A DNA stretch of 64,000 nt. Source: an uncultured Candidatus Saccharibacteria bacterium (GTDB lineage Bacteria > Patescibacteriota > Minisyncoccia > Phycocordibacterales > Phycocordibacteraceae). The stretch is taken from NCBI GenBank assembly GCA_964593365.1, contig CAZQGQ010000001.1:178384-242383 (forward strand), in the 5' to 3' direction. Position 1 is the first letter of the stretch. Each line of letters begins with the position of its first letter. Shown piece after piece: positions 3,066 through 58,574 of this stretch. The translations under genes and the position numbers were made by a program. A model generated the notes under the pieces. It saw nothing but the letters and a program-made list of their open reading frames with translations, had not been told where the DNA came from and made no database searches.

Positions 3066-3785
3066 ATGCAGGTAGTTATTCTCGCCGCAGGACGCGGAAC
3101 GCGCATGAAGGACCTCACCGTGGAGCTTCCAAAGCCCATGCTCCTTGTCGCTGGCAAAACCCTCCTTGAGCGCAAGTTCAACGAGCTTCCGCCTGAGGTA
3201 AGTGAGGTCATTATGGTAATCGGCTACCAAGGGGATAAGATCCGTGAGTACTTCGGTGATAGCTTGAACGGGACTGCTATCCGCTACGTCGAGCAGGAGA
3301 CCTTGGACGGGACCGGAGGTGCGCTCTGGAAAGCACGTCCACTATTGAAGGGTCGTTTCCTCGTCATGATGGGGGATGACCTGTATTCCCGAGAAGACAT
3401 CGACAAATGCATCGCAACTCCAGGCTGGGTGATCGGCGTCGAGGAGCGCGAATCCCTTTCAAGCGGCGGCTGCATCATCACTAACGCAGATGGGACTATC
3501 GCGGACATACAGGAAGGCAATCACGGAGGCGCTCCGGGCTTTATAAGCACGAACCTCTTCGCGCTTGATATGAGCGTGTTCGACTATCCTCTTGTGCCAA
3601 AGAGCGCAGGAAGCGATGAGTACGGATTGCCGCAAAGCGTGCTCGCGGCTTCTAAGAGCGGTTCCGTCCCTTTTACTGCAGTTATCGCAACCGGCTGGTT
3701 CCAGGTGACCGATCCCGATGACCTCACCAAAGCGGAGGAATGGCTTGCTTCCCGAGGAGCGGTTGAAGGAGAGGCTAAGAAATAG
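3066..3785 (+). CDS. sugar-phosphate nucleotidyltransferase (NTP_transferase family)
   Basis: N-terminal 'VILAAGRGTRM' G-x-G-T-R motif and 'GGALW' typical of sugar-1-phosphate nucleotidylyltransferases. Confidence 0.7.
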   Translation: MQVVILAAGRGTRMKDLTVELPKPMLLVAGKTLLERKFNELPPEVSEVIMVIGYQGDKIREYFGDSLNGTAIRYVEQETLDGTGGALWKARPLLKGRFLVMMGDDLYSREDIDKCIATPGWVIGVEERESLSSGGCIITNADGTIADIQEGNHGGAPGFISTNLFALDMSVFDYPLVPKSAGSDEYGLPQSVLAASKSGSVPFTAVIATGWFQVTDPDDLTKAEEWLASRGAVEGEAKK

Positions 3786-3800
3786 TAAGGTGTTCTCACT

Positions 3801-3874
3801 GCTGGTGTAGCTCAGGTAGTTAGAGCATAGGACTCATAAACCTAAGGTCGCAGGTGCAAGTCCTGCCACCAGCA
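3801..3874 (+). tRNA. tRNA with CAU anticodon (Ile2/lysidine-type or elongator Met)
   Basis: Acceptor gctggtg/caccagc, D-arm gctc..gagc, anticodon loop cuCAUaa, T-arm gcagg-tgcaagt-cctgc (resembles the tRNA-Ile2 UUCAAGU T-loop). A.A mismatch at 31:39. Confidence 0.6.
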
Positions 3875-3893
3875 CACTGTTATACTCGCTCGT

Positions 3894-4145
3894 ATGGATG
3901 CAACCACCTTTATAGGTGTCCTTGGGGCGGGGATTCTCCTTATCGCGTTTATCGCGAACGAGACAGGGAAGCTCAGGGCTGAGACCTTCGCCTATGACCT
4001 CCTGAACCTCGTCGGGGCGGCTCTCTTGGTCTGGTACGCCCTTCTGCTTGAGTCCATCCCGTTCCTCATCCTTGAGGGCATCTGGGCCCTGGTTGCATTC
4101 CGGGACGTCTTCACGAAGCTTGCCGTACGGGGAAAAAACGGCTAA
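3894..4145 (+). CDS. small hypothetical membrane protein (2-3 TM)
   Basis: 83-aa hydrophobic ORF between two tRNAs. Confidence 0.4.
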   Translation: MDATTFIGVLGAGILLIAFIANETGKLRAETFAYDLLNLVGAALLVWYALLLESIPFLILEGIWALVAFRDVFTKLAVRGKNG

Positions 4146-4168
4146 AGTGCTCTTTGTTCGAAACGTTT

Positions 4169-4242
4169 GCGGTCGTAGCTCAACTGGTTAGAGCACCCGC
4201 CTGTCACGCGGGAGGTTGCGAGTTCAAGTCTCGTCGACCGCG
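4169..4242 (+). tRNA. tRNA-Asp (GUC)
   Basis: Acceptor gcggtcg/cgaccgc, anticodon stem-loop cccgc-cuGUCac-gcggg, T-arm cgagttcaagtctcg. Confidence 0.85.
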
Positions 4243-4246
4243 CAAA

Positions 4247-4290
4247 GCACAAAGCCACCCGAAAGGGTGGCTTTGTGCGTGTATACTTTT
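4247..4290 (+). terminator. perfect 14-bp hairpin (GCACAAAGCCACCC-gaaa-GGGTGGCTTTGTGC) plus U-tract; copy 1 of a ~45 nt direct repeat
   Basis: Inverted repeat read directly; a near-identical copy lies at 5071-5119. Confidence 0.6.
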
Positions 4291-4332
4291 CACATGCCTC
4301 CAGAAACTGTCTTCGCGCCTCGAAGCTCTGTA

Positions 4333-4986
4333 ATGATGCGAATCAGTATCTTCGTAGCACTGCTACTCACTTTTTTTGTTGGATGTATTGGAACCTACTT
4401 TATCCTCACTTCGCGCACCACGGAGGAGGTATCTATACCAACAAATACTGAAGATGGGCGTGTGTGGGTTACGTATTCGTCCATAGTAACTGCAACAACG
4501 ACCACACATGTCTCGGCAAATGGAGAGCCATACTCAATAGCACATTCTGCAGGCTTTAGTATTGCAGTGCCTGTAAGGGAGGCCTACGAAGCTGCCCTTG
4601 AAAGCTATCCCTTTCAAACCTCAATTGAAGTTCAGGATTCAGCGGTAACTTTCAGGGCTCCTGTAGGAACTACAGATTCCGAGTACAACACCTTTATTGC
4701 CCTATATCTTGAGAGAAATGATACGAGCGACTATACAACTCAGGAAAGTTGCGTTATGTGTCAATCCTATGTGAAGGAAGTAAATACTCAGGGAGTTACG
4801 TACTATCGTTATGGCGAGTATCGACGTGGCTTGAATGCACAATATCAGTTTCCAAACATAGATGATGCGGCCACGACGCTTCAGATAACGATTAATTCGC
4901 ATAAGGACTATACCGACGAAGAGATACTAAGAATTTTAAATAGCGTCAAGAAGATAACAGAGACTCAATCTCTTACTCACGACTAG
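4333..4986 (+). CDS. hypothetical N-anchored/secreted protein encoded in a low-GC cassette
   Basis: The ORF annotated from 4216 overlaps tRNA-Asp, so the start is moved to ATG 4333 (MMRISIFVALLL signal/TM). Composition is visibly AT-richer than the flanks. Confidence 0.5.
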   Translation: MMRISIFVALLLTFFVGCIGTYFILTSRTTEEVSIPTNTEDGRVWVTYSSIVTATTTTHVSANGEPYSIAHSAGFSIAVPVREAYEAALESYPFQTSIEVQDSAVTFRAPVGTTDSEYNTFIALYLERNDTSDYTTQESCVMCQSYVKEVNTQGVTYYRYGEYRRGLNAQYQFPNIDDAATTLQITINSHKDYTDEEILRILNSVKKITETQSLTHD

Positions 4987-5070
4987 TAAATTTCACAATT
5001 AGAGACTCTAGAGATAAGTGTCTCCGTGCTTTACAGCTCTAAATCTTAATTCCAACAACGTCCACTAGCT

Positions 5071-5119
5071 CGCGCAAAGTACAAGGCCATCTGAAAGGGT
5101 GGCTTTGTGCGTTATATAC
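5071..5119 (+). repeat. copy 2 of the ~45 nt direct repeat, with an imperfect hairpin (GGGTGGCTTTGTGC 3' arm conserved)
   Basis: 'cgcgcaaagtacaaggccatctgaaagggtggctttgtgcgttatatac' vs 4241-4283 'cgcaaagcacaaagccacccgaaagggtggctttgtgcgtgtatac'. Confidence 0.6.
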
Positions 5120-5127
5120 TCTCAAGC

Positions 5128-5631
5128 ATGACCACCAACCGTCGAAGCCTCTTTTTTGCTTTGGTTCTTATTGCCGTTGTCGTGCTCGGTATCTGGTATC
5201 TTACGAGCGTAAAGAGCGGAGAAGTGCCTGAAGAGACGTGGACGCATGAATATATTCCCTACCCTCACCCTCAATTCGTTCCGCAGTGGCCAAACGAGTT
5301 CCATAATGGTCTCGTCATATCGCCTCAGTCAGCATCAAGCGTAAAGGCGGACCAAGCGTATCTGGAGAGTCCCGGTTTTATTGTCGTGCATCGCGTAGTT
5401 CGGGATTCTCCTGAAGAAGTGTTAGGCGTAAGTTCGTATCTTGCTAATGGCCTTCATAAGGACGTGCCGCTTAATGCTTCTCTTGAGGCAAACTCAATCT
5501 ATTTCGCTTTTCTCTACGCGGATGACGGAGACAGGGTCTTTGACATTACCAAAGACGCAAGACTTAAGTTCTACGACGCGCCGAACAAGACATACCCTGA
5601 AAACCGGGTCGCTCAGTTTGAGACCCTATAA
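5128..5631 (+). CDS. hypothetical N-anchored protein
   Basis: Start moved to ATG 5128 (MTTNRRSLFFALVLIAVVVL TM helix); no known domain. Confidence 0.45.
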   Translation: MTTNRRSLFFALVLIAVVVLGIWYLTSVKSGEVPEETWTHEYIPYPHPQFVPQWPNEFHNGLVISPQSASSVKADQAYLESPGFIVVHRVVRDSPEEVLGVSSYLANGLHKDVPLNASLEANSIYFAFLYADDGDRVFDITKDARLKFYDAPNKTYPENRVAQFETL

Positions 5632-5634
5632 AGA

Positions 5635-6102
5635 TTAGGATGAGGTGCGGTTACTCACGAGAATAAACACGATTGCCAAGACCACGCCAAGAAGGCAGCC
5701 TGCGGCTACCTGAAGTGGCGTATGGACGCCAAGATCGATACGACTCAAACAGATGGCAATCGCTGCAATCGCGCAGGCGCCATAGATTACATGCCGTAGG
5801 GGTTTCTGCATATTCCGTGCGAGGTAGCAAAGCGCAAGCGCAAGGAATACAGATCCGGATGCATGTCCGCTCGGGAACGCATAGCCGGCGGCTTCAATAA
5901 GCGCGTCGTTTGGACGAGGGATACGGAGGGTTTCCTTCAGAATTTGCGTCGAGAGCATGAGACCGAGTGCGCTCATTGCGAAGCAAAACGCCCGTAGCGG
6001 ATTTCGTTTCGATATAAGCCATATAACAATGAGCGCTACAGCGACCAGAAAGCCTTCGGTGCTCGCGATCTTCGTGAAGAGAAATAGGTAGAGAGAATCC
6101 AT
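5635..6102 (-). CDS. PAP2-family phosphatase (phosphatidic acid / undecaprenyl-diphosphate phosphatase-like)
   Basis: PAP2 motifs 'FPSGHAS' and 'SRIDLGVHTPLQV' (SRxxxxxHxxxD) in a multi-TM protein. Confidence 0.8.
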   Translation of the reverse strand: MDSLYLFLFTKIASTEGFLVAVALIVIWLISKRNPLRAFCFAMSALGLMLSTQILKETLRIPRPNDALIEAAGYAFPSGHASGSVFLALALCYLARNMQKPLRHVIYGACAIAAIAICLSRIDLGVHTPLQVAAGCLLGVVLAIVFILVSNRTSS

Positions 6103-6188
6103 GTGTCATCTATTCTAACCTGCGTAGAAATTAACGCGCCTAGGTAAGGTGTTTTCCCATCAGTAGAACTTGGTATACTGCCACCACC

Positions 6189-6893
6189 ATGCCTCCGAAT
6201 GAGAGCTTTGCTGCGCTTCGAAGCAAAAACACAGCGCCGGCATTTCATACGCGCTTCGAAAAGGCGTTTACGTTTATCAAGGGACATGTTGAGGAGCCTG
6301 GAGAGCCGCGTTTGTTCCGTAAAGTGAATATCTCCAAGTTCGACGTCATTCCGCTTGGAGTGCCGGAACGAATGCAGATGCTCATCGATGAATGCGAGAT
6401 ATATCTCGCGATGCCTATGTGGACCGATAAGTTCGGCACGAACCATCATCGAGTGGAAGACGAGGGCGAGCCTGGACGGCGTGATTGGCGCAACGATCCC
6501 GCATCCATTGCCGAATACGGCGCTGACGTCATGAAGGTGCTAAGCGAAGAGAACCGCCTCATGGTCAACAATATGACCAACATCCAGATAGCCGCACGAG
6601 GCCTCTGGAACGCGATGAATAGCACCATAATCGAATCCCCGGACATTGACCGACTCAAAGCCTCCGTCGAGGCTCTCTATCGCGCGTTCGGGGAGCGCGT
6701 TATGACAGAAGAAGAGACCAAAGGCATGACCGACAGGGTTAAGAAGTACATGCGCGAGCAGGTTTTTACTCTCTTCATGACCAAGTACAAAGACTGGCCG
6801 AATCTTGCTGAGGACGGGATAAACGGGAAAGTTCCGTTCGTAAAGGAGTTCAGCGCGAAGCTGCGCGAGTACTTAGACGTCGCTAGCAGCTAG
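6189..6893 (+). CDS. hypothetical protein
   Basis: 234-aa soluble ORF; no family recognised. Confidence 0.4.
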   Translation: MPPNESFAALRSKNTAPAFHTRFEKAFTFIKGHVEEPGEPRLFRKVNISKFDVIPLGVPERMQMLIDECEIYLAMPMWTDKFGTNHHRVEDEGEPGRRDWRNDPASIAEYGADVMKVLSEENRLMVNNMTNIQIAARGLWNAMNSTIIESPDIDRLKASVEALYRAFGERVMTEEETKGMTDRVKKYMREQVFTLFMTKYKDWPNLAEDGINGKVPFVKEFSAKLREYLDVASS

Positions 6894-8053
6894 CGCGTAT
6901 CCTTGAGCCAAAGAGAAGGCAAAAGCCCGAGAAGCATCACGACGCCAAGCGCGATAAAAAGGTACTGAAGCGGGAACGCGAACAGGAAGAGGACGCCGAG
7001 CAGGGGACCGATGATGTAGGCGATAGGCCGGAGCATCCGGTACGCGCTCACTTCGCCCGAGTCTCCGCCGTGCACGTGCTTGAAGAAATACGCTTCGCTC
7101 CCGATATCAAGGAGCGCGGCCCCGACGCGTGTACCAAAGAGTGCGAGTGCCCATACCCAGACGCTCGTAGCGGTAATAAGAGCAAGTGCCGCTACTGCAA
7201 TTGCAGAGAGCACGAAGCCTGTAAGCAGCACCTCCTGTTCGCCCCAGGCAGAGTCCTCAAGGCGACCCACAGGAATCTCAAGCACGAGGAAAGGGATGAG
7301 CATCACCGCAAAGACGATCGCCATATGCTCAAGCGGCATGCCGATGTACTCGTGGAGATAGAGAGGGACATACACGACCATGACCGAATAAAAGATCTGC
7401 AGCAGGAACTGCACGCAAAAGATGCTCTGGAGATCCTTAGAAGCAGAGACCTTTCGGAAGACTGCGGGCCAGTCGGGGCGCTCGTACTCTGCGTCCTGGA
7501 ACTCTCGAAGAAGCCTTCCAGAAATGATCGCAAGCGCGAAGAGCATCAGGGAGCCAACCAGATACACGAATGAGAACGCGCCATTTGCAAGAAGCACGAT
7601 CAGAAGGATCTGCGCCGCTGCCAGTCCTCCGTTGACGAGCGTCACGTACATGCCGCGACGCCCGCCCGTCTTATGGATGTCGCCTGAAACGGTTGCAAGG
7701 AAGATATCGATTAGCACGTAGAGGCTCACCGAAAGCCCGATCGCCGCTGAAAGCAATAACGCGGAGACCAGTGGGATAGTACTCACTGCTACTGCAAAAA
7801 AGAGCGCTCCTGCAGCAACGAAGCCCATGACAAGCAGGTGCCGGTCTCCGAACATGCGAAGCGCGAACGGGACAAGGAGCATGAGAGCAAGCGCGACAGC
7901 GTAGCCCAAGGCTGAGATCATGCCGACGCCCTGGTCGGTAAACCCAAGCTCATCCAGATAGGATGAGTTCAGGAAGATAATGAGCCCGTACTGAAGGCTG
8001 TAGAGAAAGGAAAGTATGAAAATGTTCCTGCGAAGGACGCTTGCAACAGTCAT
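6890..8053 (-). CDS. MFS-type transporter (12 TM)
   Basis: Hydropathy pattern of ~12 TM helices with MFS-like loops; 4-nt overlap with the convergent upstream gene. Confidence 0.65.
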   Translation of the reverse strand: MTVASVLRRNIFILSFLYSLQYGLIIFLNSSYLDELGFTDQGVGMISALGYAVALALMLLVPFALRMFGDRHLLVMGFVAAGALFFAVAVSTIPLVSALLLSAAIGLSVSLYVLIDIFLATVSGDIHKTGGRRGMYVTLVNGGLAAAQILLIVLLANGAFSFVYLVGSLMLFALAIISGRLLREFQDAEYERPDWPAVFRKVSASKDLQSIFCVQFLLQIFYSVMVVYVPLYLHEYIGMPLEHMAIVFAVMLIPFLVLEIPVGRLEDSAWGEQEVLLTGFVLSAIAVAALALITATSVWVWALALFGTRVGAALLDIGSEAYFFKHVHGGDSGEVSAYRMLRPIAYIIGPLLGVLFLFAFPLQYLFIALGVVMLLGLLPSLWLKDTR

Positions 8054-8096
8054 GACTCTCCTTATTCTAGCACCTGACTTCCGCTACTTCTGCGTG

Positions 8097-8462
8097 CTAC
8101 TGGCCGCTACCTTCTTTGCGGATAGCATCGAACTCGCGTTCAAACGTATCGATGACCTCGTCGCTGCCGTCCTCGATATCGATGAGCTGGTTTCGCGCTG
8201 AGTCGATAGCCTTGATGAGCTCGTCGAGCTTGAGGTGCACGGCATGCGCATCGCGGTTCTGGGTGTTCTGAATGAGGAACACCATGAGGAAGGTAAGGAT
8301 TGTCGTACCTGTGTTCACCATGAGCTGCCAGGTGGTAGAGAAATGGAACACGGGTCCCAAGACTGCCCAGAGCACAATGAGTGAAAAGGCGACGACAAAC
8401 GCCCACGGGGATCCGGTAACGCCGCTCGTCCAGTGAGCTACTCTTCGAAATAGGTCATGCAT
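8097..8462 (-). CDS. small membrane protein of the low-affinity iron permease (Fet4-like) / DUF1003-type family
   Basis: 'TGTTILTFLMVFLIQNTQNRDAHAVHLKLDELI' resembles the conserved core of these small bacterial permease-like proteins. Confidence 0.45.
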   Translation of the reverse strand: MHDLFRRVAHWTSGVTGSPWAFVVAFSLIVLWAVLGPVFHFSTTWQLMVNTGTTILTFLMVFLIQNTQNRDAHAVHLKLDELIKAIDSARNQLIDIEDGSDEVIDTFEREFDAIRKEGSGQ

Positions 8463-8567
8463 ATGCCCACATCATACCAGCTTCATAAGAGAGAGGGCCT
8501 GTTATCCGACCGAGCAAAAGATTGAAATAACCCCGTAAATTGGTTAGGATTCCCAAGTTCGCATCTA

Positions 8568-10020: not shown

Positions 10021-10836
10021 ATGACTCGCCCTGAAATGCCGTCTTCTGTAGAAACAGATCTTTCTGCGATTGAGAGCAAGGACTTCGGTACCTATTGGTA
10101 CTTGGTCCAGAAGTTCTATCACGAGAAGTTCTTCAACTCAGACTATCTGGGAAGCCTTATTGCGTATCTCGATAAACTACAGCCAGCTAGGGTCCTTGAT
10201 GCTTCCTGTGGCATTGGGTATCCAGCTATTGAACTGGCTCAGCATGGTTTCAATATCACCTGCAGTGACGGCGACGAATCGCTTCTCCGGGTATTTGAAA
10301 AGCGATTGAGAGAGAGCGATGTTGCGATACCCATCCATCACGCTCGTTGGGCAGAGCTCCCAGAAAAAATAGATGGAACGTTTCCGATTGTCCTGTGTCT
10401 TGATAGTTCGATAACGTATGCAAACTCATGGGGAAGTGAAGGAGAAATAAATCTGCCTCAGACTCGGGAAGAGATACGTAAATCCCTTCAGGGTTTCTAC
10501 GACATGCTCGAACCTGGGGGCAAAGCCGTAATAGGCCTTGGTGAGTACGCCTTTACCGATGATCGGGTAGAGGGAAAGATCGTCGATCTAGGCACCCAAG
10601 CGATAGGAGGCCAGACCGTTCAGCTTGTCTGGAAGCTTGAGTTTGACTATGAACAGAAGAAGAAAACCTGGCACTCAGTCTTCACTACTAACGGTAGAGA
10701 ATATACGCGGACATTCTATAGCTACATGCTCATGGCAGACGAGCTTGAGGAGCTATTACGAGAGGTTGGATTCACCGCTATAGAAACTGAGCCAACTCCG
10801 GGCGGGTACGACAGAAACGTTATCGCAACAAAATAG
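10021..10836 (+). CDS. class I SAM-dependent methyltransferase, glycine/sarcosine N-methyltransferase-like
   Basis: 'RVLDASCGIGYPAIELAQHGFNITCSDGDESLLRVFEKR' parallels GNMT '[40 protein letters not shown]'; downstream 'LCLDSS..GGKAVIG' also parallels GNMT. Confidence 0.6.
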   Translation: MTRPEMPSSVETDLSAIESKDFGTYWYLVQKFYHEKFFNSDYLGSLIAYLDKLQPARVLDASCGIGYPAIELAQHGFNITCSDGDESLLRVFEKRLRESDVAIPIHHARWAELPEKIDGTFPIVLCLDSSITYANSWGSEGEINLPQTREEIRKSLQGFYDMLEPGGKAVIGLGEYAFTDDRVEGKIVDLGTQAIGGQTVQLVWKLEFDYEQKKKTWHSVFTTNGREYTRTFYSYMLMADELEELLREVGFTAIETEPTPGGYDRNVIATK

Positions 10837-17575: not shown

Positions 17576-17646
17576 TGCGAGATCGTCTAATGGTAGGACA
17601 ACGGACTCTGAATCCGTTTATCTAGGTTCGAATCCTAGTCTCGCAG
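17576..17646 (+). tRNA. tRNA-Gln (CUG)
   Basis: Acceptor tgcgaga/tctcgca, anticodon stem-loop acgga-cuCUGaa-tccgt, T-arm ctaggttcgaatcctag. Confidence 0.7.
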
Positions 17647-17658
17647 CAGTCATGAATA

Positions 17659-17726
17659 CCCTGTCTGGTGACCTAGACAGGTAACAGTCCGAAACGACCC
17701 GTCTAATGACCTAGACGGGTCGTTTC
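17659..17726 (+). repeat. two tandem hairpins sharing the loop core GACCTAGAC (7-bp stem and 15-bp perfect stem) between tRNA-Gln and the island
   Basis: cCTGTCTggtGACCTAGACAGg and GAAACGACCCGTCTAatGACCTAGACGGGTCGTTTC. Confidence 0.55.
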
Positions 17727-17851
17727 GTTCTATCTACACAAACTACGAAGATAGGTGCTCTTAACGCTATGGGTCAATAGAGATCCATTTATATGGGATC
17801 TTTATTGTGATAGAATTACTGGAAGGTTATATTCAGTAGCCTAACAATTTT

Positions 17852-19390
17852 ATGAGTAAAAAAGACAACAAGAAGACACTCAAAGTCCCTGCACTTAGGG
17901 TGAATCAGTGGCTAAAGAAGTGGGACGGTATTAAGTGGGATATCGGACAACACAGAAGGAAGCCGGAGAACTGTTTCTATGTTTTTTCGCTGTCAGCAAA
18001 GCAACTCAGAGCTCTTTCAGGTGTTTATAGGCGAGATACGCAAACGCGTACTGGTCTGCAAAGAACCCATGAGCCAAAGCGATCCGAGAATATCGGTAAG
18101 TACGTTAAATATGGATACCCTTGGTCTGACTTAACAGACGATCAGAGAAAGGAAGGGCGTTTTGATCATTTACAGAAACCGGGATGGCTACCTACAGCAA
18201 TTGTGGTAAACATTCTTACAAAGGACGATTCACGCAATGGGAAAAAAGTTGCAGCTGAAGATTTGATCAAAATCATAAGTGACACACAAAAAAATACTCA
18301 AATAGAGCTTCCAAAATCATTTACAAATTCTGAAACATGGAAAGTAAAACAGGAACGCCCCATCGAGATTATTGATGGGCAACATCGCTTGTTGGCTTTT
18401 GACGATGACGAGATATCCGGTGATTACGAATTACCAGTAGTTGCATTTTATGGACTGGATATTAGTTGGCAGGCATATCTATTTTGGACGATCAACATTA
18501 AGCCAAAACGAATCAACCCAAGTTTAGCTTACGATCTTTATCCATTACTGCGTACAGAGGAATGGTTGGAGCAGTTTGAAGGGCATAAAGTTTACAGAGA
18601 AGTTAGGGCACAGGAACTTGTTGAAATGCTTTGGTCAGAAGAGAAGAGTGCATGGTATCGAAGAATTAATATGTTGGGAGAAAGTGGCGGCCCTTCAGTT
18701 ACTCAGGCTGCGTGGATTCGAGCTCTTACTAAAACTTTTATCAAATCATTTGAGGGAGGAAAGAAAAATAAAATTGGAGGATTGTTTGGTGCGCCGGTTG
18801 GAAAAGACAAAATTGCAATTCCTTGGAATCGCGCTCAGCAAGGAGCGTTGTTGATCCATTTATGGAATGAGATAAGTGAGGCCGTTGAAAATTCCAAAGA
18901 AAGATGGGTAAAGGAGCTTCGTGATAAAAAGAAACAAGAATACAAGCGAGGGATTGATGGAGATGTTGCTTTATTCGGGCCGTATTCGTTGTTGACTAAT
19001 GACCAAGGTGTCTCCGTGGTTCTAAATATTAGCAATGACCTCCTCTTTCTGGAGAAAGACAAGCTTAACCTACAGGAGTGGGAATTTGATGCCGAGGGTA
19101 GCGTTACCGAAGCGCTCAGTTCACTTACAAAAAAACAAAAAAAGTTATCAGAATACGTATCTCGTCTCGCTAAAGCGATAGCAACTTTTGACTGGAGAAC
19201 ATCTGCAGCTGTGGGCTTAACGGAAAATGAACGGACGCAGAAACTTTCTTATAGAGGTGGTAGTGGGTATAAGGAATTTCGCAGGCAACTTCTTAAGCAT
19301 CTTATCAATGATGCTCATTTTGGTGACTCTGCAAAGGAGATCTATCAAGCTCTAGGATATGCCAAGGAAGACACCAAAAAAATCAAATAA
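17852..19390 (+). CDS. DGQHR-domain protein (DndB-like, ParB/sulfiredoxin fold)
   Basis: Signature 'EIIDGQHRLLAF'; low-GC gene, first in a four-gene overlapping operon. Confidence 0.65.
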   Translation: MSKKDNKKTLKVPALRVNQWLKKWDGIKWDIGQHRRKPENCFYVFSLSAKQLRALSGVYRRDTQTRTGLQRTHEPKRSENIGKYVKYGYPWSDLTDDQRKEGRFDHLQKPGWLPTAIVVNILTKDDSRNGKKVAAEDLIKIISDTQKNTQIELPKSFTNSETWKVKQERPIEIIDGQHRLLAFDDDEISGDYELPVVAFYGLDISWQAYLFWTINIKPKRINPSLAYDLYPLLRTEEWLEQFEGHKVYREVRAQELVEMLWSEEKSAWYRRINMLGESGGPSVTQAAWIRALTKTFIKSFEGGKKNKIGGLFGAPVGKDKIAIPWNRAQQGALLIHLWNEISEAVENSKERWVKELRDKKKQEYKRGIDGDVALFGPYSLLTNDQGVSVVLNISNDLLFLEKDKLNLQEWEFDAEGSVTEALSSLTKKQKKLSEYVSRLAKAIATFDWRTSAAVGLTENERTQKLSYRGGSGYKEFRRQLLKHLINDAHFGDSAKEIYQALGYAKEDTKKIK

Positions 19391-20717
19391 CACCTTTCCT
19401 TCGAATGCATATTCAAGGGAAGCGACCCAGGCAACCTTCAATAGACTGAAGGCTTATCTTGATGATGATCGCTGGCTTGCGCGAGGGAATCGATATGCGA
19501 TCAAATGTGTTGATCGTATTCGAAAGGACTATAAGCAAGACTCTAGAACGAAAGTAATTACAAACGATATAGTCGAGAAGCATCTTGCTGAATATATAGC
19601 TGCTTCTGCGCCTGTCCACGCAATAGATGGGTGGGGTTTTTTAGGGAAAGCAATCGCAAGTCACTCAATTGGAGATATTGAGGCATGTAAGCATTTTGCT
19701 TATTATGCGCAGCTTCGAGCTGTCATGTCACTGATGGCCAGTGAAGGTATTGGAGTTTTTGATAACAAGCATTTTGCAATAAAGAATGCGGATCGGAGAA
19801 CTTCGTCTGTGACAGCCCCGAAAAAGAGTTCCACGCATGATTTTGCAGGTTCGCAGTTTAGATCATGGGCAAAATCAAAGAGTTCCGGAGCTCTGCTTGA
19901 GAAGATAATTCGACCCAGAGGTATCTCTCTTGAGGAATGGTTTAAGGAAATTTCACCAACAAAAGTTAGTTGGCTGGCTCAAGACTGGCTTGATCATTGG
20001 GGATATGACTTAAATAAATTTAAGAAAGATCAAGATGCTCGAAACAGAGCAAGTTATAGACCAACAATTCTAGACCGTGACTTAAATTATCGAAACGCTT
20101 CAGTTGTAAGTGACTCGATTGAACTTGTGGATGCGATCTGGAGAATGTGTTCACCTGATAGCGTCGGTGGTTTCAGCCTGGATTTGCAGCTAATGAGAGT
20201 TAGTTGGGATGAATATTCGCGTATGAGAGGAACGACTCCGACTCGAGCTGATAGAGAAAAGGTTTTAAGTGACTTAGGTATCTTGCAACCAGAATTAGGT
20301 AATCTAGTCGACTTTTTTGAACGTACAACTTCATCCGTAGATTCAATCATCTTAACTGAAGCACGTAAGAAAGGTTCACCCGAAGATGTCGATTATCACT
20401 CGCAAATGCTATGTCGTGCCACAATTCTGCTACGTCTTGCCACTGGGGCATCAGCTTCTCTTATAGCAAAGGCTAAGTTCGATAAGGATGATTTGAAGTT
20501 TTGGTCAGATTTTGTTGGTGAGAACTCGGGCTTGTGGGAGTCAGGTGCTCCAAACCCTATTACAGATATGTGGAACGAAGTTGAAGAAGCTTTGCATGAC
20601 CTCAACGTTAAAGCACCCTCAATTAATAATCATTATAAATGGCGTTCTGAACTCGCAAATGAAGTACTGACCTTGTCTGGGTGTGAGCGTATTGGTTTAG
20701 CCCGATTTTGCCTATGA
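19359..20717 (+). CDS. hypothetical protein, no recognisable domain (island component 2)
   Basis: 452 aa; 32-nt overlap with the upstream gene and 10-nt overlap with the downstream one. Only a weak P-loop-like 'GWGFLGKA'. Confidence 0.5.
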   Translation: MPRKTPKKSNNTFPSNAYSREATQATFNRLKAYLDDDRWLARGNRYAIKCVDRIRKDYKQDSRTKVITNDIVEKHLAEYIAASAPVHAIDGWGFLGKAIASHSIGDIEACKHFAYYAQLRAVMSLMASEGIGVFDNKHFAIKNADRRTSSVTAPKKSSTHDFAGSQFRSWAKSKSSGALLEKIIRPRGISLEEWFKEISPTKVSWLAQDWLDHWGYDLNKFKKDQDARNRASYRPTILDRDLNYRNASVVSDSIELVDAIWRMCSPDSVGGFSLDLQLMRVSWDEYSRMRGTTPTRADREKVLSDLGILQPELGNLVDFFERTTSSVDSIILTEARKKGSPEDVDYHSQMLCRATILLRLATGASASLIAKAKFDKDDLKFWSDFVGENSGLWESGAPNPITDMWNEVEEALHDLNVKAPSINNHYKWRSELANEVLTLSGCERIGLARFCL

Positions 20718-21961
20718 AATACATGGGCTCAAAACGTTATATGTTAAATAACGGTCTTGGTACTTTGATACGAGATCAGTTACCTCATGCTAACAGGGTG
20801 ATAGATCCATTTTGTGGAGCAGGATCAGTAATTCAATTTGCAGCAAAGAATTCTGATAAGGAGATAATTGCCGGCGATCTTCAGCAGTATGCAATTGTAC
20901 TCGCAAGGGCTGTTATTGAACGTACAAAGCCAGTTGATGTGCCTATGTTACAGACTAGTTGGTTACTTAAGGCGGAAGAACAACTGTCGAGATCTAAGCT
21001 TTTTCTGCAAGCAAAGAAGAACGACATTAATTATTCCCAAAATGTAGAAGAGTGGGTAAAAAAATCTCGCCAACTATGTGAGATTCCTTCAAAGATTGGA
21101 CCTGTATGGGGTGCTTACGGTGGTCATTACTTCAGTCCTAAGCAAGCGCTTATTATTGATTATCTTATTAAGTGTTTGCCTGAGAAGACCACTGACCGGA
21201 ATGTCTGTTTAGCTGCCCTGATAACTGCAGCTTCAAGATGTGCTGCAGCTCCGGGACATACAGCCCAGCCTTTTCAACCTACTGAAGGTGCTTCTAAGTT
21301 TATAAAGATCTCTTGGAACATGGATGTGCTCAAGTCTTGTTTAAATGCTTTGACTGAGATCGCACCGCTACATGCCAAAACAAATGGTGCTGCATATGTT
21401 GGAAGCGCTGAGAAGCTCACACAAAAAATGCAAAAAGGAGATCTGGTAATAATTGACCCTCCTTATTCAGGGGTACAATATAGTCGTTTTTATCATGTAT
21501 TAGAGACCATCGCGCGTGGCAAATGCGGAAAGGTAGAAGGGGTAGGGCGTTATCCTGTATTGTCAGAGCGCCCTCAGTCGTCTTTTAGTAATGTTGGTCA
21601 ATCTGTCGAAGCTCTCGATATTCTTCTAAAAAAGTTATCAGAGAGAGAAGTTGTCGTAATTTTTACTTTCCCTAAGGGCGATTGCAGTAACGGTTTATCC
21701 GGAAAGGTGATTGCAGACAGTGCAAAAAAGTATTTCACAATAGATAAAAAGAGCAGAACACACCATCATGTAGTGAAGGGTAAGTTCAGCACTTTAGGTG
21801 GAAATAATAAACTTAAACTAAAAAACAACGAGGTTAAAAGATCTCGAGTGACCTCTGAGGAGCTTATCCTCCTTCTTAAGCCGAGAGTATCAAAGTCAGT
21901 ATCACGTAGCAAACAAAAACAAAAGATAAAAACACGTAAGAGCTATGCACAATATCGGTAA
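20708..21961 (+). CDS. D12-class (Dam-like) N6-adenine DNA methyltransferase with a Lys-rich C-terminal tail
   Basis: 'YMGSKRYML' (cf. KWAGGKR), 'DPFCGAGSV' (FxGxG) and catalytic 'IIDPPYSG' (DPPY). Confidence 0.7.
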   Translation: MPMKYMGSKRYMLNNGLGTLIRDQLPHANRVIDPFCGAGSVIQFAAKNSDKEIIAGDLQQYAIVLARAVIERTKPVDVPMLQTSWLLKAEEQLSRSKLFLQAKKNDINYSQNVEEWVKKSRQLCEIPSKIGPVWGAYGGHYFSPKQALIIDYLIKCLPEKTTDRNVCLAALITAASRCAAAPGHTAQPFQPTEGASKFIKISWNMDVLKSCLNALTEIAPLHAKTNGAAYVGSAEKLTQKMQKGDLVIIDPPYSGVQYSRFYHVLETIARGKCGKVEGVGRYPVLSERPQSSFSNVGQSVEALDILLKKLSEREVVVIFTFPKGDCSNGLSGKVIADSAKKYFTIDKKSRTHHHVVKGKFSTLGGNNKLKLKNNEVKRSRVTSEELILLLKPRVSKSVSRSKQKQKIKTRKSYAQYR

Positions 21962-22823
21962 AAAGATAACTATATATCTCGTTACAGGACTTCCAAAAGG
22001 AGTTCGAGAGGCCCGTATCGATCAGTGGAGTGGTAAAGCAGTTTGCGGTCCTCGAAACGCATTAAAAGAGATAATCGCTTTGCCTGAAGTTGAGTCGGGC
22101 GCATGTATATATTTTCTTATAGGCATTCCAGATGACGGAGGGTTGCTTGATGTATATGTTGGAGAAGCAGATGGGTTTAAAGAAAGAATTAAACACCATG
22201 ACTACAAGAAAGAGTGGTGGCAAGACGTTGTAGTATTTGTCAGTCAAGATAAATCACTTACAAAAACGGGAATTCAGTATCTTGAGAGTGTTTGTATCGA
22301 GCGTCTAAAGCAGATTGGCAAATGTAATCTTAAGAATGGTAATAGTCCCTCTCTACCTACAACGCCTAAGGAAGACTTAAGTGGTCTCGAACTGTTTTAT
22401 ATGAATCTTGCAACAATTATGCCCTTGCTTGGTTATGATATCTTTGTTCAAAACGAAAAATCACCTGGTAAGAATACGGTAGAGAGTCCAGTTTTTACGT
22501 GCAAGAAAGGAGTGAATATTGTTGCGGAAGCATATTTACTCGAAGATGGAAAAATGCGTGTTTTAAAAGGGTCAAAAGCGTCAGCAGAAGAAACACCTTC
22601 TTTTCAAAGCCATCCATATAAAAAACTAAAAAATGAGTTAATAAAAATCAATCGCTTGGTACCTCAAGGTGACATTCTTATCTTTTCTGATGATTACGTT
22701 TTTGACAGCTCAAGCGCTGCATCAGCCGTTATACAAGCTCGATCTTCACCGGGACCTATAGAATGGAAACTGAAAAAGGGAGGTAAAACTTTGAGAGAGT
22801 ATCTAAACTCAAAGATTCAATGA
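21945..22823 (+). CDS. GIY-YIG nuclease domain protein with a C-terminal DUF4357-like domain
   Basis: 'ACIYFLIGIPDDGGLLDVYVGEADGFKERIKHH' fits GIY-(10-11 aa)-YIG plus the Arg/Glu pattern; 17-nt overlap with the methyltransferase. Confidence 0.55.
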   Translation: MHNIGKKITIYLVTGLPKGVREARIDQWSGKAVCGPRNALKEIIALPEVESGACIYFLIGIPDDGGLLDVYVGEADGFKERIKHHDYKKEWWQDVVVFVSQDKSLTKTGIQYLESVCIERLKQIGKCNLKNGNSPSLPTTPKEDLSGLELFYMNLATIMPLLGYDIFVQNEKSPGKNTVESPVFTCKKGVNIVAEAYLLEDGKMRVLKGSKASAEETPSFQSHPYKKLKNELIKINRLVPQGDILIFSDDYVFDSSSAASAVIQARSSPGPIEWKLKKGGKTLREYLNSKIQ

Positions 22824-22956
22824 GAGTTATAACTGCAGAAGCCATATTTTAATCTTCTCAGGTATTGAGACACGTCGCTTTAAACACTTCATACAACAGT
22901 ATAAGTTATTGATCTCACGCAATTTTCACGACCCTTTTTGTATCCTTCATAGCGTG

Positions 22957-22995
22957 AAAAACACCCGTGTCTTCAAGCAAGAAACGGGCGTTTTT
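22957..22995 (+). terminator. rho-independent terminator closing the island operon
   Basis: aaaacacccgt..aacgggcgttttt hairpin followed by a T-tract. Confidence 0.5.
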
Positions 22996-23024
22996 CATTT
23001 TCTTATCAGCTCATAACAAAAACT

Positions 23025-24671: not shown

Positions 24672-25529
24672 TCAATCAAACACCTGTTCCGGGTACACAT
24701 GCTCTATCTCAGGCAGCACGTCAGGGATGGTGCTCACGGTCTCTACTGTTCCTGCTTCCTGGTCGATATAGAGGAGCGCGCTCGCCACATTGTTGTCATA
24801 GCGCAGTTCCTCAAGGCGAAGAAGCGGGTTCACGTTGAAGGTCAGGCGGTATTCTCCGGTCGGAAGATCAGTGATATCCAAATCCTGGTCCGGGTAGTCG
24901 TAGAAGTAGGTGTCACCCCAGCCGATCGAGACTCCTTGGAGCTCTTTCCAGCACACCTTGTAGAGCGCGTCTTCTGAGCGGTTAGGAAGATCGAGCGCGA
25001 CCCGGCTGATGTCGCGGAGGCAGAACGTCGCCTTCTCGCTCCAGGTTCGCTTCTCGCTCTCATCTCCTTCGGTCGAGAGCGAGTACTCTACGAAATCGCT
25101 GTAATGGTAATGGAGATGCTCTTGGTGCCAAAGGAAGTTCCCGACGATCCTGTCTCGGTACGCGTCATCGTTTCGGTAGATGCGCTGGAACACGTCACGC
25201 TCGATGTCTTCGCGGATTCCTGCGGTAGCTTCGTCTGCGCGAAGCTCCATGACTCCGTCGCCTTGGTTGTAATAGACGGTACTGAAAAGAAGATAAGTTC
25301 GGCCGGCAGATTCCTGGACAACGACATCTTGGGGCGGAAGGGGAACAAGATCAGGGAGCAAATCTCCTGAAGCGCGTCGTTCATCCAGAACCTCTTGGGT
25401 TTCTGGCACGATCACTTCTTTCTTAGGAGCGTTCTCCATAATGGCAAACGCCGCTACCGGTATCAGGGCTACCAGCAGGAGAATGAGAAGGGGATGGCGA
25501 CGAATCGTTCCTTTTATATCGTGGGACAT
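24672..25529 (-). CDS. lysyl oxidase-like copper amine oxidase (secreted)
   Basis: 'FLWHQEHLHYHYSDF' matches the LOX copper-binding W-H-x-x-H-x-H-Y-H motif; start moved to the signal peptide at M19. Confidence 0.45.
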   Translation of the reverse strand: MSHDIKGTIRRHPLLILLLVALIPVAAFAIMENAPKKEVIVPETQEVLDERRASGDLLPDLVPLPPQDVVVQESAGRTYLLFSTVYYNQGDGVMELRADEATAGIREDIERDVFQRIYRNDDAYRDRIVGNFLWHQEHLHYHYSDFVEYSLSTEGDESEKRTWSEKATFCLRDISRVALDLPNRSEDALYKVCWKELQGVSIGWGDTYFYDYPDQDLDITDLPTGEYRLTFNVNPLLRLEELRYDNNVASALLYIDQEAGTVETVSTIPDVLPEIEHVYPEQVFD

Positions 25530-25642
25530 GAAAGTATCAGAACTTAGTCCCCTCATAATGACCTTGAAACGAGCTAGATGCAATTCGAACTAGTTCATCA
25601 AGGCTTCATGCAAAGTTGCTATATTCTTGCCATACTTACTCT

Positions 25643-56639: not shown

Positions 56640-58574
56640 TTATACTCCGATCAAGACCGGGATAACCATCGGTGCCTTGTTGGTTCGAGAGAACAGATAG
56701 CCTGCCATGGTGTCGGTAAGCTGGTTCTTCACGAAATCAAGGTCAACCGGGTTCATTCCCTCAGTCGAGTCCTCGACTGTCTTCTTGATGAGAAGGCGGG
56801 CTTGGTTCAGAAGATCCTGAGACTCTCGCAGATAGATGAATCCGCGGGAGATGATATCAGGGGACTTCCGCAGTTTGCCGGTCTTTAGGTGCACGGTCGC
56901 GATGATGACGAACATGCCGTCCTTGGCGAGCATCTGGCGGTCGCGGATCACGACCTCCTGCATGTCGCCGATGGCGAATCCGTCGACAATCAACGGAGCG
57001 TTTGGCACCTTATCCTTGTGGATCATGAGGCGCTCGCCGTCCACGATGTCGATCACCATGCCGTTATCGGCAAGGACGATGTTCTCGCGAGGGAAGCCTG
57101 CCTGCTCGACTGCCTTTGCGTGTGAGCTTGTCATAGAGTAGTAGCCGTACGCTGGCATGAAGAACTTCGCGTTCACCTGCTTGTTGATCCAGACCAACTC
57201 TCCGGTTTGTCCGTGTCCTGTGGAGTGCACGTCAGAGGAGCGGTAATGGATCAGGGTGACCTTGTTGCGGAAGAGGTTATCCTTCAAGCGCTGCACGGCG
57301 ATCTCGTTTCCAGGAATAACCGATGACGAGAGCACGATAGTATCTCGCTCGTTAAGCGTGATGCTCTTGTGCTGCTTGGTTGCGATGCGCATAAGCGCTG
57401 CGAATTCCTCACCCTGCGCGCCTGTTGCCAAGACGACGATCTTGTCTGGCGGATAATCGCCTATCTCGGTCGCGGGGACAACGGTTCCCTTGGCGATCTT
57501 GAGGAGGCCGGTCTTCTCTGCGATCTCAAGGTTCGTCTTGATCGAACGGCCTTCCATAACCACCTTCTTCCCGAGTCGCTCGGCGATCTGGATGATATGG
57601 ATCATGCGCTCGAACTGGGACGCGAAGGTGCCGATAATGAGGCGTCCTTTCACCGTCTTCACGATCTCCTCCAAGGTCTCATGGACCTTTCGTTCGGGGA
57701 TCGAGAAGCCGTCCTTCTCGGCGTTTGTTGAGTCTGCAATAAAGAACAGGTTGTTGTCCTTTCCGATCTCGCCCCACTTCTTGGCTTCTGCTTCAGTGGC
57801 GACGCCATCGACATGGTCGAGCTTCAAGTCTCCTGTCGCAACGACGTTGCCGTAGGGCGTCTCGATCGAGATACCCATCGAGTCAGGGATAGAGTGCGTG
57901 ACTGGGAAGAACTTCACTCGTGTTCCTCCAATGGTGTGCGTTGACCCAGGCTCAACCACCACGAGGTTTGGAGCGGGCATCTCAGGATATTCTTCCTGAC
58001 GCTTCTGGATCATCACGGCAGAAAGGTTCTGCGTGTAGATAGGGGGGTTCCCGAATCGGTTCATGAGGAACGGGATGCCGCCGATGTGGTCGAGGTGGCC
58101 GTGGGTAATGAAGACCGCGCGTACGCGTTCTTGGTTCTTCTCAAGGTAACTGGTGTTAGGGAGCATGTAGTCGACGCCTGGAGCCGTGTCTTCGGAGACG
58201 AACTGGAAGCCCACGTCGCAGACGAAGATATCGTTGCCGCTTTCAACGGCAAACATGTTGCGTCCCACTTCCTCGACGCCGCCAAGAGGCACGATGCGAA
58301 CGACGTTTGGTGCGACTGGGTCAGGGAAGTAATCAGCTACTTTTCGGACTGTTGGGGCCGAGGGGGATCGGCGCATGCCGCCGCGGCGCATGTCGCGCTG
58401 CTTTCCTCCGGATCGTCCGCCTGCTGCGCGAGGTCCTCCGGTTCGAGGTCCGCGAGACGGGCCCTGGGGCCCTGCTCCGCGATTGCCGCGGAAGGGAGGG
58501 CGTCCACCTGCCTGATCGCCGCCTTGGCGGGAATCTGGAGCGGGTGCTGGGGCCGGTGCTGGTGCAAAGTTCAT
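56640..58574 (-). CDS. rnj: ribonuclease J (metallo-beta-lactamase/beta-CASP) with ~90-aa N-terminal RG-rich extension
   Basis: 'FITHGHLDHIGG' HxHxDH motif, beta-CASP and C-terminal domains; N-terminus 'PAPAPAPAP..RGNRGAGPQG'. Confidence 0.85.
   Translation of the reverse strand: MNFAPAPAPAPAPDSRQGGDQAGGRPPFRGNRGAGPQGPSRGPRTGGPRAAGGRSGGKQRDMRRGGMRRSPSAPTVRKVADYFPDPVAPNVVRIVPLGGVEEVGRNMFAVESGNDIFVCDVGFQFVSEDTAPGVDYMLPNTSYLEKNQERVRAVFITHGHLDHIGGIPFLMNRFGNPPIYTQNLSAVMIQKRQEEYPEMPAPNLVVVEPGSTHTIGGTRVKFFPVTHSIPDSMGISIETPYGNVVATGDLKLDHVDGVATEAEAKKWGEIGKDNNLFFIADSTNAEKDGFSIPERKVHETLEEIVKTVKGRLIIGTFASQFERMIHIIQIAERLGKKVVMEGRSIKTNLEIAEKTGLLKIAKGTVVPATEIGDYPPDKIVVLATGAQGEEFAALMRIATKQHKSITLNERDTIVLSSSVIPGNEIAVQRLKDNLFRNKVTLIHYRSSDVHSTGHGQTGELVWINKQVNAKFFMPAYGYYSMTSSHAKAVEQAGFPRENIVLADNGMVIDIVDGERLMIHKDKVPNAPLIVDGFAIGDMQEVVIRDRQMLAKDGMFVIIATVHLKTGKLRKSPDIISRGFIYLRESQDLLNQARLLIKKTVEDSTEGMNPVDLDFVKNQLTDTMAGYLFSRTNKAPMVIPVLIGV

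Follow-up and report, generated by a model that had tools for sequence, protein, structure and literature searches.

A recurrent, mobile cassette built around a DGQHR protein and a HEPN-like partner, with a predicted adenine methyltransferase and a candidate GIY-YIG nuclease, in a Candidatus Saccharibacteria genome

Gene content of the island and domain assignments

A 64,000-nucleotide stretch of contig CAZQGQ010000001.1 from an uncultured Candidatus Saccharibacteria bacterium (hereafter, the window) contained a low-GC island of ~5.3 kb, in which four same-strand genes, designated P1 to P4, followed a tRNA-Gln gene (Table 1). These genes encode a DGQHR protein (P1), a helical protein with a modelled HEPN-like core (P2), a predicted N6-adenine DNA methyltransferase (P3), and a putative GIY-YIG nuclease (P4). 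The island is a real, recurrent, and mobile cassette, which is predicted to be a modification-based defence variant assembled around the uncharacterised but widespread pair of P1 and P2. A preliminary description of this DNA had reported overlapping genes, a composition richer in AT than the flanks, and a bracket of twin hairpins and a terminator, and all of these were recovered. The open reading frames (ORFs) of P1/P2, P2/P3, and P3/P4 overlapped by 32, 10, and 17 nt, respectively, with one correction for P3: its start at ATG 20714 (the JGI call) gives a 4-nt ATGA start/stop overlap with P2, replacing the 10 nt counted from TTG 20708. The GC content was 0.37-0.43 between ~17650 and 22950 vs. 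0.51-0.57 in the flanks (about 0.41 inside and 0.53 outside), and the GC profile had sharp edges. The twin hairpins folded at -43.8 kcal/mol (z -7.4), with none of 200 shuffled sequences being equally stable, and the hairpin at the right edge folded at -21.3 kcal/mol (z -4.5). P4 is followed by a single terminator. The absence of dndCDE, dpdA-like, and integrase genes noted in the preliminary description was likewise reproduced: profiles built from true DndC, DndD, and DndE detected no dndC, dndD, or dndE homologue in the 64-kb window, no TGT-like domain was found in the four island proteins, and the window contained no homologue of the tyrosine integrase of a related island (locus L033, see below).

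Table 1. Features of the low-GC island and its edges, in window coordinates (aa, amino acids).
Feature	Position	Strand	Basis or remark
tRNA-Gln (CTG), left edge of low-GC island	17576-17647	+	ARAGORN; Rfam tRNA 67.8 bits
Twin hairpins 3' of tRNA-Gln (17660-17681 and core 17690-17727)	17660..17731	+	Second hairpin terminator-like
Two overlapping sigma-70-like promoter matches 5' of P1	17788..17833	+	Consensus matches only
P1 ORF, 512 aa	17852-19390	+	ORF list
P2 ORF, 452 aa	19359-20717	+	ORF list
P3 ORF, 415 aa from ATG 20714 (417 aa from TTG 20708)	20714..21961	+	Start from JGI gene call
P4 ORF, 292 aa	21945-22823	+	ORF list
Terminator-like hairpin, then T-rich tract; right island edge, where GC returns to host level	22954..22998	+	Fold

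The DGQHR, adenine methyltransferase, and GIY-YIG/DUF4357 assignments that had been made for P1, P3, and P4 agreed with the profile and family comparisons. P1, which contains the string IIDGQHRL, scored 81.8 bits on the DGQHR domain model TIGR03187 (curated cutoff, 58.85) and 34.6 on Pfam DndB (threshold, 29.1). Its N-terminal half is of the ParB/Srx-fold NTPase type and its C-terminal half is helical. The DGQHR motif set consists of a QR pair, the DGQHR pentapeptide, and FxxxN (PMC4619093); among 48 homologues of P1, Q70 was nearly invariant, and R71, D175-G-Q-H-R179, F211, and N215 were invariant. On the Dnd-associated DGQHR model TIGR04172, P1 reached 60.7 bits vs. a cutoff of 450, and a P1 homologue located beside real dndCDE genes (L032) likewise reached just 61.8. 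The score on the DpdB equivalog NF041060 was 29.9 bits vs. a cutoff of 300, and the sole PADLOC match of P1 was DpdB (6e-8). Judged by these curated equivalog models, P1 is neither DndB nor DpdB. No nuclease domain was detected in P1, and a PDB sequence-profile search with this protein returned no useful matches.

P2 matched nothing in Pfam, NCBIfam, PADLOC, or PHROGs, either by itself or when 59 family members were scanned singly, apart from one weak PF05168 match that is weighed below. The 452-aa protein had been described as having no recognisable motif, which still holds at the level of sequence families but not for its predicted structure: an AlphaFold model (predicted local distance difference test 91.5, predicted template modelling score 0.92), almost wholly helical, presented a core resembling the HEPN four-helix fold. 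The P2 family shared the invariant element D224-x3-R228-N-x-A-S-Y233-R-P235, as well as invariant H87, D90, R120, H160, D217, and R353. PDB sequence-profile searches with P2 and with a P2 sub-alignment gave no useful matches. On the basis of the model, P2 is best labelled as a protein with a HEPN-like fold and a non-canonical site, rather than as a HEPN RNase.

P3 scored 69.2 bits on PF02086 (D12; cutoff, 22) and 9e-19 on PADLOC MTase_II. It carries the N-terminal S-adenosylmethionine (SAM)-binding motif DPFCGAGSV and DPPY at residues 251-254. P3 is assigned to the D12 class of N6-adenine DNA methyltransferases (Dam family, with the alpha-type motif order), and its activity is predicted; its similarity to the T4 Dam structures was marginal (E about 0.4).

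P4 gave full-length matches to the PADLOC candidate PDC-S14 (PDLC04923, 1e-80, residues 4-291; PDLC04925, 7e-80), and it also matched DUF4357 (55.2 bits) and phrog_12629, which is of unknown function (5.9e-57). As judged from these matches, P4 is an already catalogued candidate and hence is not new in itself; no experimental validation of PDC-S14 was found in the literature. The GIY-YIG residues Y56, Y71, G73, R81, E114, and N131 were invariant in 41 P4 homologues, among which DUF4357 was detected in 38, RAMA in 22, and GIY-YIG weakly in 14 (best E, 0.0011). Because the Pfam GIY-YIG matches were weak, this assignment follows from the motif and from NCBI naming. A PDB sequence-profile search with P4 yielded no useful matches. 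The definition of the RAMA domain came from fusions with the nucleases and methylases found in N6-adenine restriction-modification (R-M) systems, and the domain was predicted to discriminate N6-methyladenine (m6A) (PMC4738411).

In the region upstream of P1, the count of sigma-70-like sites was not above the shuffled expectation. A palindrome (AGATCC...GGATCT, window 17775-17800) that contains two GATC sites overlaps the promoter-like -35 region 5' of P1. The number of GATC sites 5' of P1 was near chance across 13 loci.

Conservation of the P1-P2 pair and its variable partners

Gene neighbourhoods were counted by calling ORFs in 80 genome loci and searching these with iterated profiles of the four proteins; 78 loci were informative. 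P1 was located directly upstream of P2 in all 78 of them, which covered about 20 phyla-level groups, one archaeon among them. Across phyla, identity was about 50% for P1 and about 33% for P2. An exhaustive search for P2 collected 1058 representatives at 50% identity, and 204 matching stretches were found among the species-representative genomes scanned. The carriers included Patescibacteria, Omnitrophota, Planctomycetota, Acidobacteriota, Chloroflexota, Cyanobacteria, Alphaproteobacteria, Actinomycetota, and the archaeon Methanoregula. Viral contigs seldom carried the family, with 9 loci in 2.9 million, and a viral origin was rejected on account of this rarity.

The modification gene next to the pair varied. 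The gene adjoining P1-P2 was a long D12 methyltransferase in 47 loci and a short Dam of the classical kind in 13; six more had a methylase encoded elsewhere in the locus, with Dam immediately upstream of P1 in three of these. In one of these six (L077), the long D12 gene runs into P2 by a frameshift; the apparent 826-aa P2-P3 fusion was rejected as a frameshift artefact, with the P2 C-terminus out of frame and carried by a separate ORF. Three loci (L020, L032, and L080) had dndC-dndD-dndE next to P1-P2, and a fourth had DndD/E. The downstream genes of L032 scored 684, 579, and 130 bits on the curated DndC, DndD, and DndE models, respectively, and dnd_assoc_4 was located upstream. The profiles found no modification gene in eight loci, three of which carry a gamma-type N6_Mtase, N6_N4_Mtase, or MT-A70 beside the pair. 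The partner types were scattered on a neighbour-joining tree of concatenated P1 and P2, and partner swaps have therefore been repeated. The invariant unit is thus P1-P2, and the DNA-modification enzymes to which it is coupled fall into at least six kinds that are unrelated.

The nuclease was a far less constant partner. The order P1-P2-P3-P4 recurred in L011, L033, and L074, and in two metagenome contigs (L186 and L187), with P4 being present in three of the 80 genome loci and in a Patescibacteria-centred subclade. A permuted order, P4-P1-P2-P3, was found in L094, where the P4 homologue was about 50% identical. In L093, a P4 homologue precedes a trio of a DGQHR gene, a middle gene, and a methylase; the middle gene was tried as a short P2 and rejected (hhalign probability, 0.1%). 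Twelve "longest contig" values were common to the list of P4 homologues and the lists for P1 and P2, which suggests that at least 12 contigs co-carry P4 and P1/P2 homologues. P4 homologues also occurred in other R-M contexts that lack P1-P2 (L095 and L096). The 17-nt overlap couples P3 and P4 translationally in the window. Families recurring among 133 immediate neighbours were Mrr_cat (4), BglII-family restriction endonuclease (REase; 3), DUF4357 (3), N6_Mtase (3), integrases (3), and MT-A70 (2). The BglII-family REases were encoded immediately upstream of P1, or of Dam-P1-P2 (L035:3808-4416, L083:4840-5430, and L089:4698-5339), so that the pair is nested within R-M operons that are otherwise classical. 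P4 is therefore an optional add-on, and other loci have BglII-like or Mrr-like nucleases in its stead.

These comparisons revised two parts of the preliminary description and sustained another. The association of P2 with DGQHR proteins, which had been raised there for gene-neighbourhood analysis, held in every informative locus. The proposal that the four genes form a new system stood insofar as the set is unnamed and recurs in other genomes, but P4 proved optional and already catalogued, and the idea of an indivisible four-gene novelty gave way to a conserved unit of P1-P2 plus a modification gene. The separation of this P1 arrangement from Dnd was not upheld: because the same pair also precedes genuine dndCDE in some genomes, P1-P2 is better viewed as a relative of the Dnd logic than as something apart from it.

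Two further arrangements were observed at related loci. In L071, a second DGQHR protein (765 aa; L071:6950-9244) follows directly after the methylase; its DGQHR region aligned with P1 (hhalign E, 4.6e-12), and its C-terminus had a weak, sub-threshold Swt1-like HEPN match. This protein may represent, in fused form, what P1 and its HEPN-like partner are as two proteins. A three-gene module was located downstream of the P1-P2-methylase trio in L004 (10449-14898), L009 (9251-13780), and L012. Its products are an unannotated ~180-217-aa protein, a ~950-aa protein that combines a kinase-like N-terminus with an ORC/CDC6-like STAND NTPase, and a third protein of ~340-350 aa. The module may represent an alternative effector module.

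Mobility and genomic settings

A complete integrative island with these four genes as its sole cargo was identified in another member of Patescibacteria (L033, JBAZJR010000003.1, 3383-10634). This 7.2-kb island is composed of tRNA-Asn, a tyrosine integrase (3498-4637), and P1-P2-P3-P4, and is delimited by a 24/25-nt repeat of the tRNA 3' end (3435-3459 and 10610-10634, 7,175 bp apart). Its GC content was 0.33-0.39 vs. about 0.50 in the flanks. In the window, no att-like repeat of the tRNA-Gln 3' end was found. Because the integrase and the repeat are present in L033 and absent from the window, the window copy looks decayed, and it is best read as an integrase-less remnant of a tRNA-targeting island, with tRNA-Gln as the gene at which it probably once integrated. 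For an empty-site comparison, metagenomes were scanned with the flanking response regulator, and only relatives at ≤52% identity were recovered; the insertion boundaries are consequently placed by GC content and the tRNA alone.

Other copies had comparable settings. The four genes directly follow tRNA-Ala in L011, and are accompanied by a serine recombinase in L186. The latter contig also encodes, within a few kb of the four-gene cassette, a ParB_N-N6_N4 methylase fusion and a second N6_N4 methylase (L186:10835-12827). Three-gene versions were found beside Tn7-like genes on plasmid pRt932 of Rhizobium tumorigenes, and in a conjugative-element context in Herbiconiux. Plasmid pZZM405 of Zymomonas mobilis ZM4 (L091, NC_013788.1) carries the trio at record positions 4808-8470, namely, DGQHR (WP_012954783), a hypothetical protein (WP_012954782), and Dam (WP_012954781); DUF4433 and macro-domain genes follow at a distance of ~1.9 kb. 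In the methylome published for ZM4, two type I motifs and GANTC are the only ones listed (PMC8432527), and none is attributable to this Dam, although that strain may lack the 30,952-bp plasmid that bears the trio.

Proposed function and alternative explanations

No named system with this composition was found in PADLOC-DB v2.0.0 (2023), NCBIfam, Pfam, or full-text literature, as the preliminary description had supposed. The cassette resembles type II R-M systems in combining a Dam-family methylase, with SAM and DPPY motifs, and an adjacent small DNA nuclease, with intact GIY-YIG residues, in one operon. In three related loci, a BglII-family REase is present, and P1-P2 is situated between or beside the REase and the methylase. 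Such a position resembles that of the controller (C) gene of some R-M operons. On the other hand, two large proteins (512 and 452 aa) take the place of a C protein of ≤80 aa, the nuclease carries a RAMA reader domain, and most loci lack the nuclease. The likeness to dndBCDE is of another kind: P1 contains the DGQHR domain and scores above the Pfam DndB threshold, P1-P2 heads the operon directly upstream of modification genes (including real dndC/D/E in L020, L032, and L080), and the partner for restriction or cleavage changes between loci and is frequently missing, as it is in Dnd systems (PMC10853773). In contrast to Dnd, the window lacks dndCDE and its modification enzyme is an adenine methylase, P1 (~510 aa) is below the cutoff of the Dnd-associated model, and P1 is always accompanied by P2, a component not described for Dnd. 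Dpd shares the placement of a DGQHR ParB-like NTPase gene beside that of a DNA-modifying enzyme, but the island has no DpdA/TGT-like gene, the modification chemistry differs, and P1 is below the DpdB cutoff.

The remaining comparisons concern single components. PDC-S14 is listed as a single-gene candidate, whereas P4, which matches its models over the full length, is located in a multi-gene operon here and in at least seven other loci. The MAE_28990-type family likewise brings a DNA methylase together with one protein of the ParB superfamily and one with a HEPN fold (PMC3710099), but it is set apart by its description, in which the Rx4-6H motif is reported to be kept; P2 does not keep it, and its set is at best a distant analogue. 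In the DUF262/GmrSD and SspE types, which are linked to modification-aware defence, the ParB/Srx fold likewise carries a DGQ(H/Q)R motif (PMC4619093). P1 differs from them in having no fused HNH/DUF1524 nuclease and in matching the DGQHR subfamily, not DUF262; GmrSD_N was matched in a relative at an E of 0.06 only.

The observed properties of the cassette are the genes that it contains, the domains and folds assigned to their products, a conserved gene order, repeated partner swaps, and mobility. The explanation preferred here, to which about an even chance is given, is that the operon is a mobile, adenine-methylation-based R-M-type defence cassette with a DndB-like control or sensor pair. P3 would mark resident DNA with m6A, and P4 would be the DNA-cutting effector, with its C-terminal RAMA/DUF4357 region reading DNA or its methylation state, and the P3 mark shielding resident DNA. 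P1-P2, an obligate pair that travels with many unrelated modification enzymes and fills the DndB slot in genuine dnd operons, would most likely be a unit gated by nucleoside triphosphate (NTP) that controls or senses, and thereby sets the timing and strength of modification, and hence of restriction. P2 may double as a back-up, RNA-directed effector. The pair is placed on the modification side because it is fixed at the head of modification operons and is indifferent to the enzyme that follows, and because of the roles published for its relatives. DndB is an ATP-modulated negative regulator of phosphorothioate modification (PMC10853773; PMC4507180), DpdB is an ATPase that is required for DpdA-mediated insertion (PMC12839542), and a DndB-like protein binds ATP and GTP (bioRxiv 10.1101/2025.10.10.680097). 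By analogy, P1-P2 would be the counterpart of DndB in the m6A world. Each biochemical activity named in this scheme, the direction in which P4 responds to methylation, and the role of P1-P2 are predictions from sequence and context.

Several results weigh against this explanation. A recognisable nuclease was found among the immediate neighbours in just about 10-12 of the 80 loci, and because nuclease neighbours are so few, P1-P2 plus methylase would be complete in itself or non-restrictive in most genomes. Upstream of P1, no operator motif was common beyond close relatives, and neither the 58-kb host flanks nor the island showed an avoidance of palindromes or of GATC that would point to a recognition site. 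Classical R-M C proteins are far smaller than a two-protein "controller" of 960 aa. A purely regulatory role is also at odds with the size and conservation of P1-P2, the apparent active site of P2, and the defence or mobile context of trios that are free of a nuclease. As for P2 itself, no conserved Rx4-6H motif was present in the family, a Foldseek search of the model vs. PDB returned nothing at E ≤ 0.001, and the sole HEPN match in Pfam was that of one member among 59 to PF05168 (E, 0.04). The preference of RAMA for m6A is not experimentally confirmed, and GIY-YIG-RAMA has been flagged as a possible type IV (methylation-dependent) enzyme, which is the opposite polarity (PMC11037411). The operonic N6-adenine methylase, if active as predicted, argues against a P4 that requires m6A.

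The points against a purely regulatory role leave room for an alternative, in which P1-P2 is itself the restriction or abortive-infection arm: P1 would scan DNA as an NTP-gated sensor and P2 would be the effector, either of HEPN type or novel, so that the trio is complete and P4 an extra. This alternative is possible but clearly less probable, carrying about half the weight of the preferred explanation. Most loci have no adjacent nuclease, yet are in mobile-element or defence contexts, such as a type I R-M system and kinase-STAND genes in L004, AbiEii and integrases in L009, PIN/RHH genes in L008, the DUF4433/macro-domain genes of pZZM405, and the Tn7-like genes of pRt932. The dense invariant polar residues of P2 suggest an active site within a HEPN-like fold, ParB-HEPN fusions exist (PMC3710099), the 765-aa protein of L071 pairs DGQHR with a weak Swt1-HEPN match, and DUF262/GmrSD-type relatives of the DGQHR proteins take part in restriction (PMC4619093). 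In a generalised form, which is also only tentatively entertained, P1-P2 would be a restriction component independent of the modification type, with a ParB-like NTP-gated clamp and a non-canonical HEPN-fold effector plugged onto unrelated self-marks and with optional nucleases as second effectors. Those marks might be phosphorothioate or the m6A made by methylases of at least five types, and an immune response would be elicited by their absence (or presence); the nucleases could be GIY-YIG-RAMA, BglII-like, or Mrr-like enzymes. Against P1-P2 as the restriction arm, a single conserved pair would have to recognise marks that differ in chemistry, given that its partners include no fewer than five types of methylase as well as phosphorothioation. 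Furthermore, P2 lacks Rx4-6H, P1 has no detected nuclease domain, and both DndB and DpdB, the DGQHR proteins that have been characterised, work on the side of modification.

A role outside defence is unlikely, although the distribution of the module on plasmids, integrative islands, and Tn7-like and conjugative elements would suit it. In such an epigenetic, addiction, or anti-restriction module, P1, as a ParB-like clamp, would help a promiscuous methylase to protect the DNA of the element or would stabilise the island, and P3-P4 would form a selfish, post-segregational killing pair. ParB-fold-methylase fusions are common in prophages, where they were suggested to be anti-defence (bioRxiv 10.1101/2025.10.10.680097), and a ParB_N-N6_N4 methylase is encoded near the cassette in L186. 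However, the P2 family is rare in viral contigs, R-M-type nucleases recur beside the module, and a minimal island with the four genes as its sole cargo fits a load that benefits the host or is of R-M type. For R-M systems, moreover, addiction does not exclude defence. Least probable of all, and indeed improbable, is that P4 is an independent, methylation-dependent (type IV) nuclease, the single-gene PDC-S14, that merely neighbours an unrelated P1-P2-methylase module in a defence islet. The catalogue entry of PDC-S14 as a single gene, the P4 homologues in R-M contexts without P1-P2 (L095 and L096), and the suggestion of GIY-YIG-RAMA as a type IV candidate (PMC11037411) are compatible with it. 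Against this independence, P4 overlaps P3 by 17 nt with only one terminator, after P4; the association recurs in two gene orders at 30-80% P4 identity; and all four genes were mobilised together between att sites in L033. A nuclease dependent on m6A would also be self-destructive beside an active N6-adenine methylase, unless the sequence contexts of the two differ.

If the preferred explanation of a methylation-based cassette with a DndB-like pair is true, catalogues of defence systems would gain a new family, and "orphan" Dam-family methylases beside DGQHR genes would be re-annotated. At 50% identity, the P2 family falls into more than 1000 clusters, and its members were found in no fewer than 204 species-representative genomes; it has neither a family annotation nor a described function, and is nonetheless locked to a DGQHR protein and DNA-modification genes. 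The role of the pair bears on the long-standing question of whether DndB-type proteins act as a regulator, a helper ATPase, or an effector, and methylation, which is far easier to read out than phosphorothioation, makes for a convenient system in which to address it. The four-gene version is a portable unit of 5 kb that moves as one. Cultured carriers of the trio include Zymomonas mobilis (pZZM405), Herbiconiux ginsengi, Sphingomonas colocasiae, and several Bradyrhizobium species, and the hypothesis is therefore directly testable.

Two other features of the window are unrelated to the island. A 104-nt "tRNA-Phe" reported by ARAGORN at 58179-58282 (minus strand) is very probably a false positive; it falls inside a 644-aa ORF (56640-58574) and had no Rfam tRNA match even at E ≤ 1. 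A protein of 285-303 aa encoded at 24672-25583 (minus strand) matched Pfam Lysyl_oxidase, which is uncommon in bacteria, and its gene adjoins two tandem cold-shock-domain genes.

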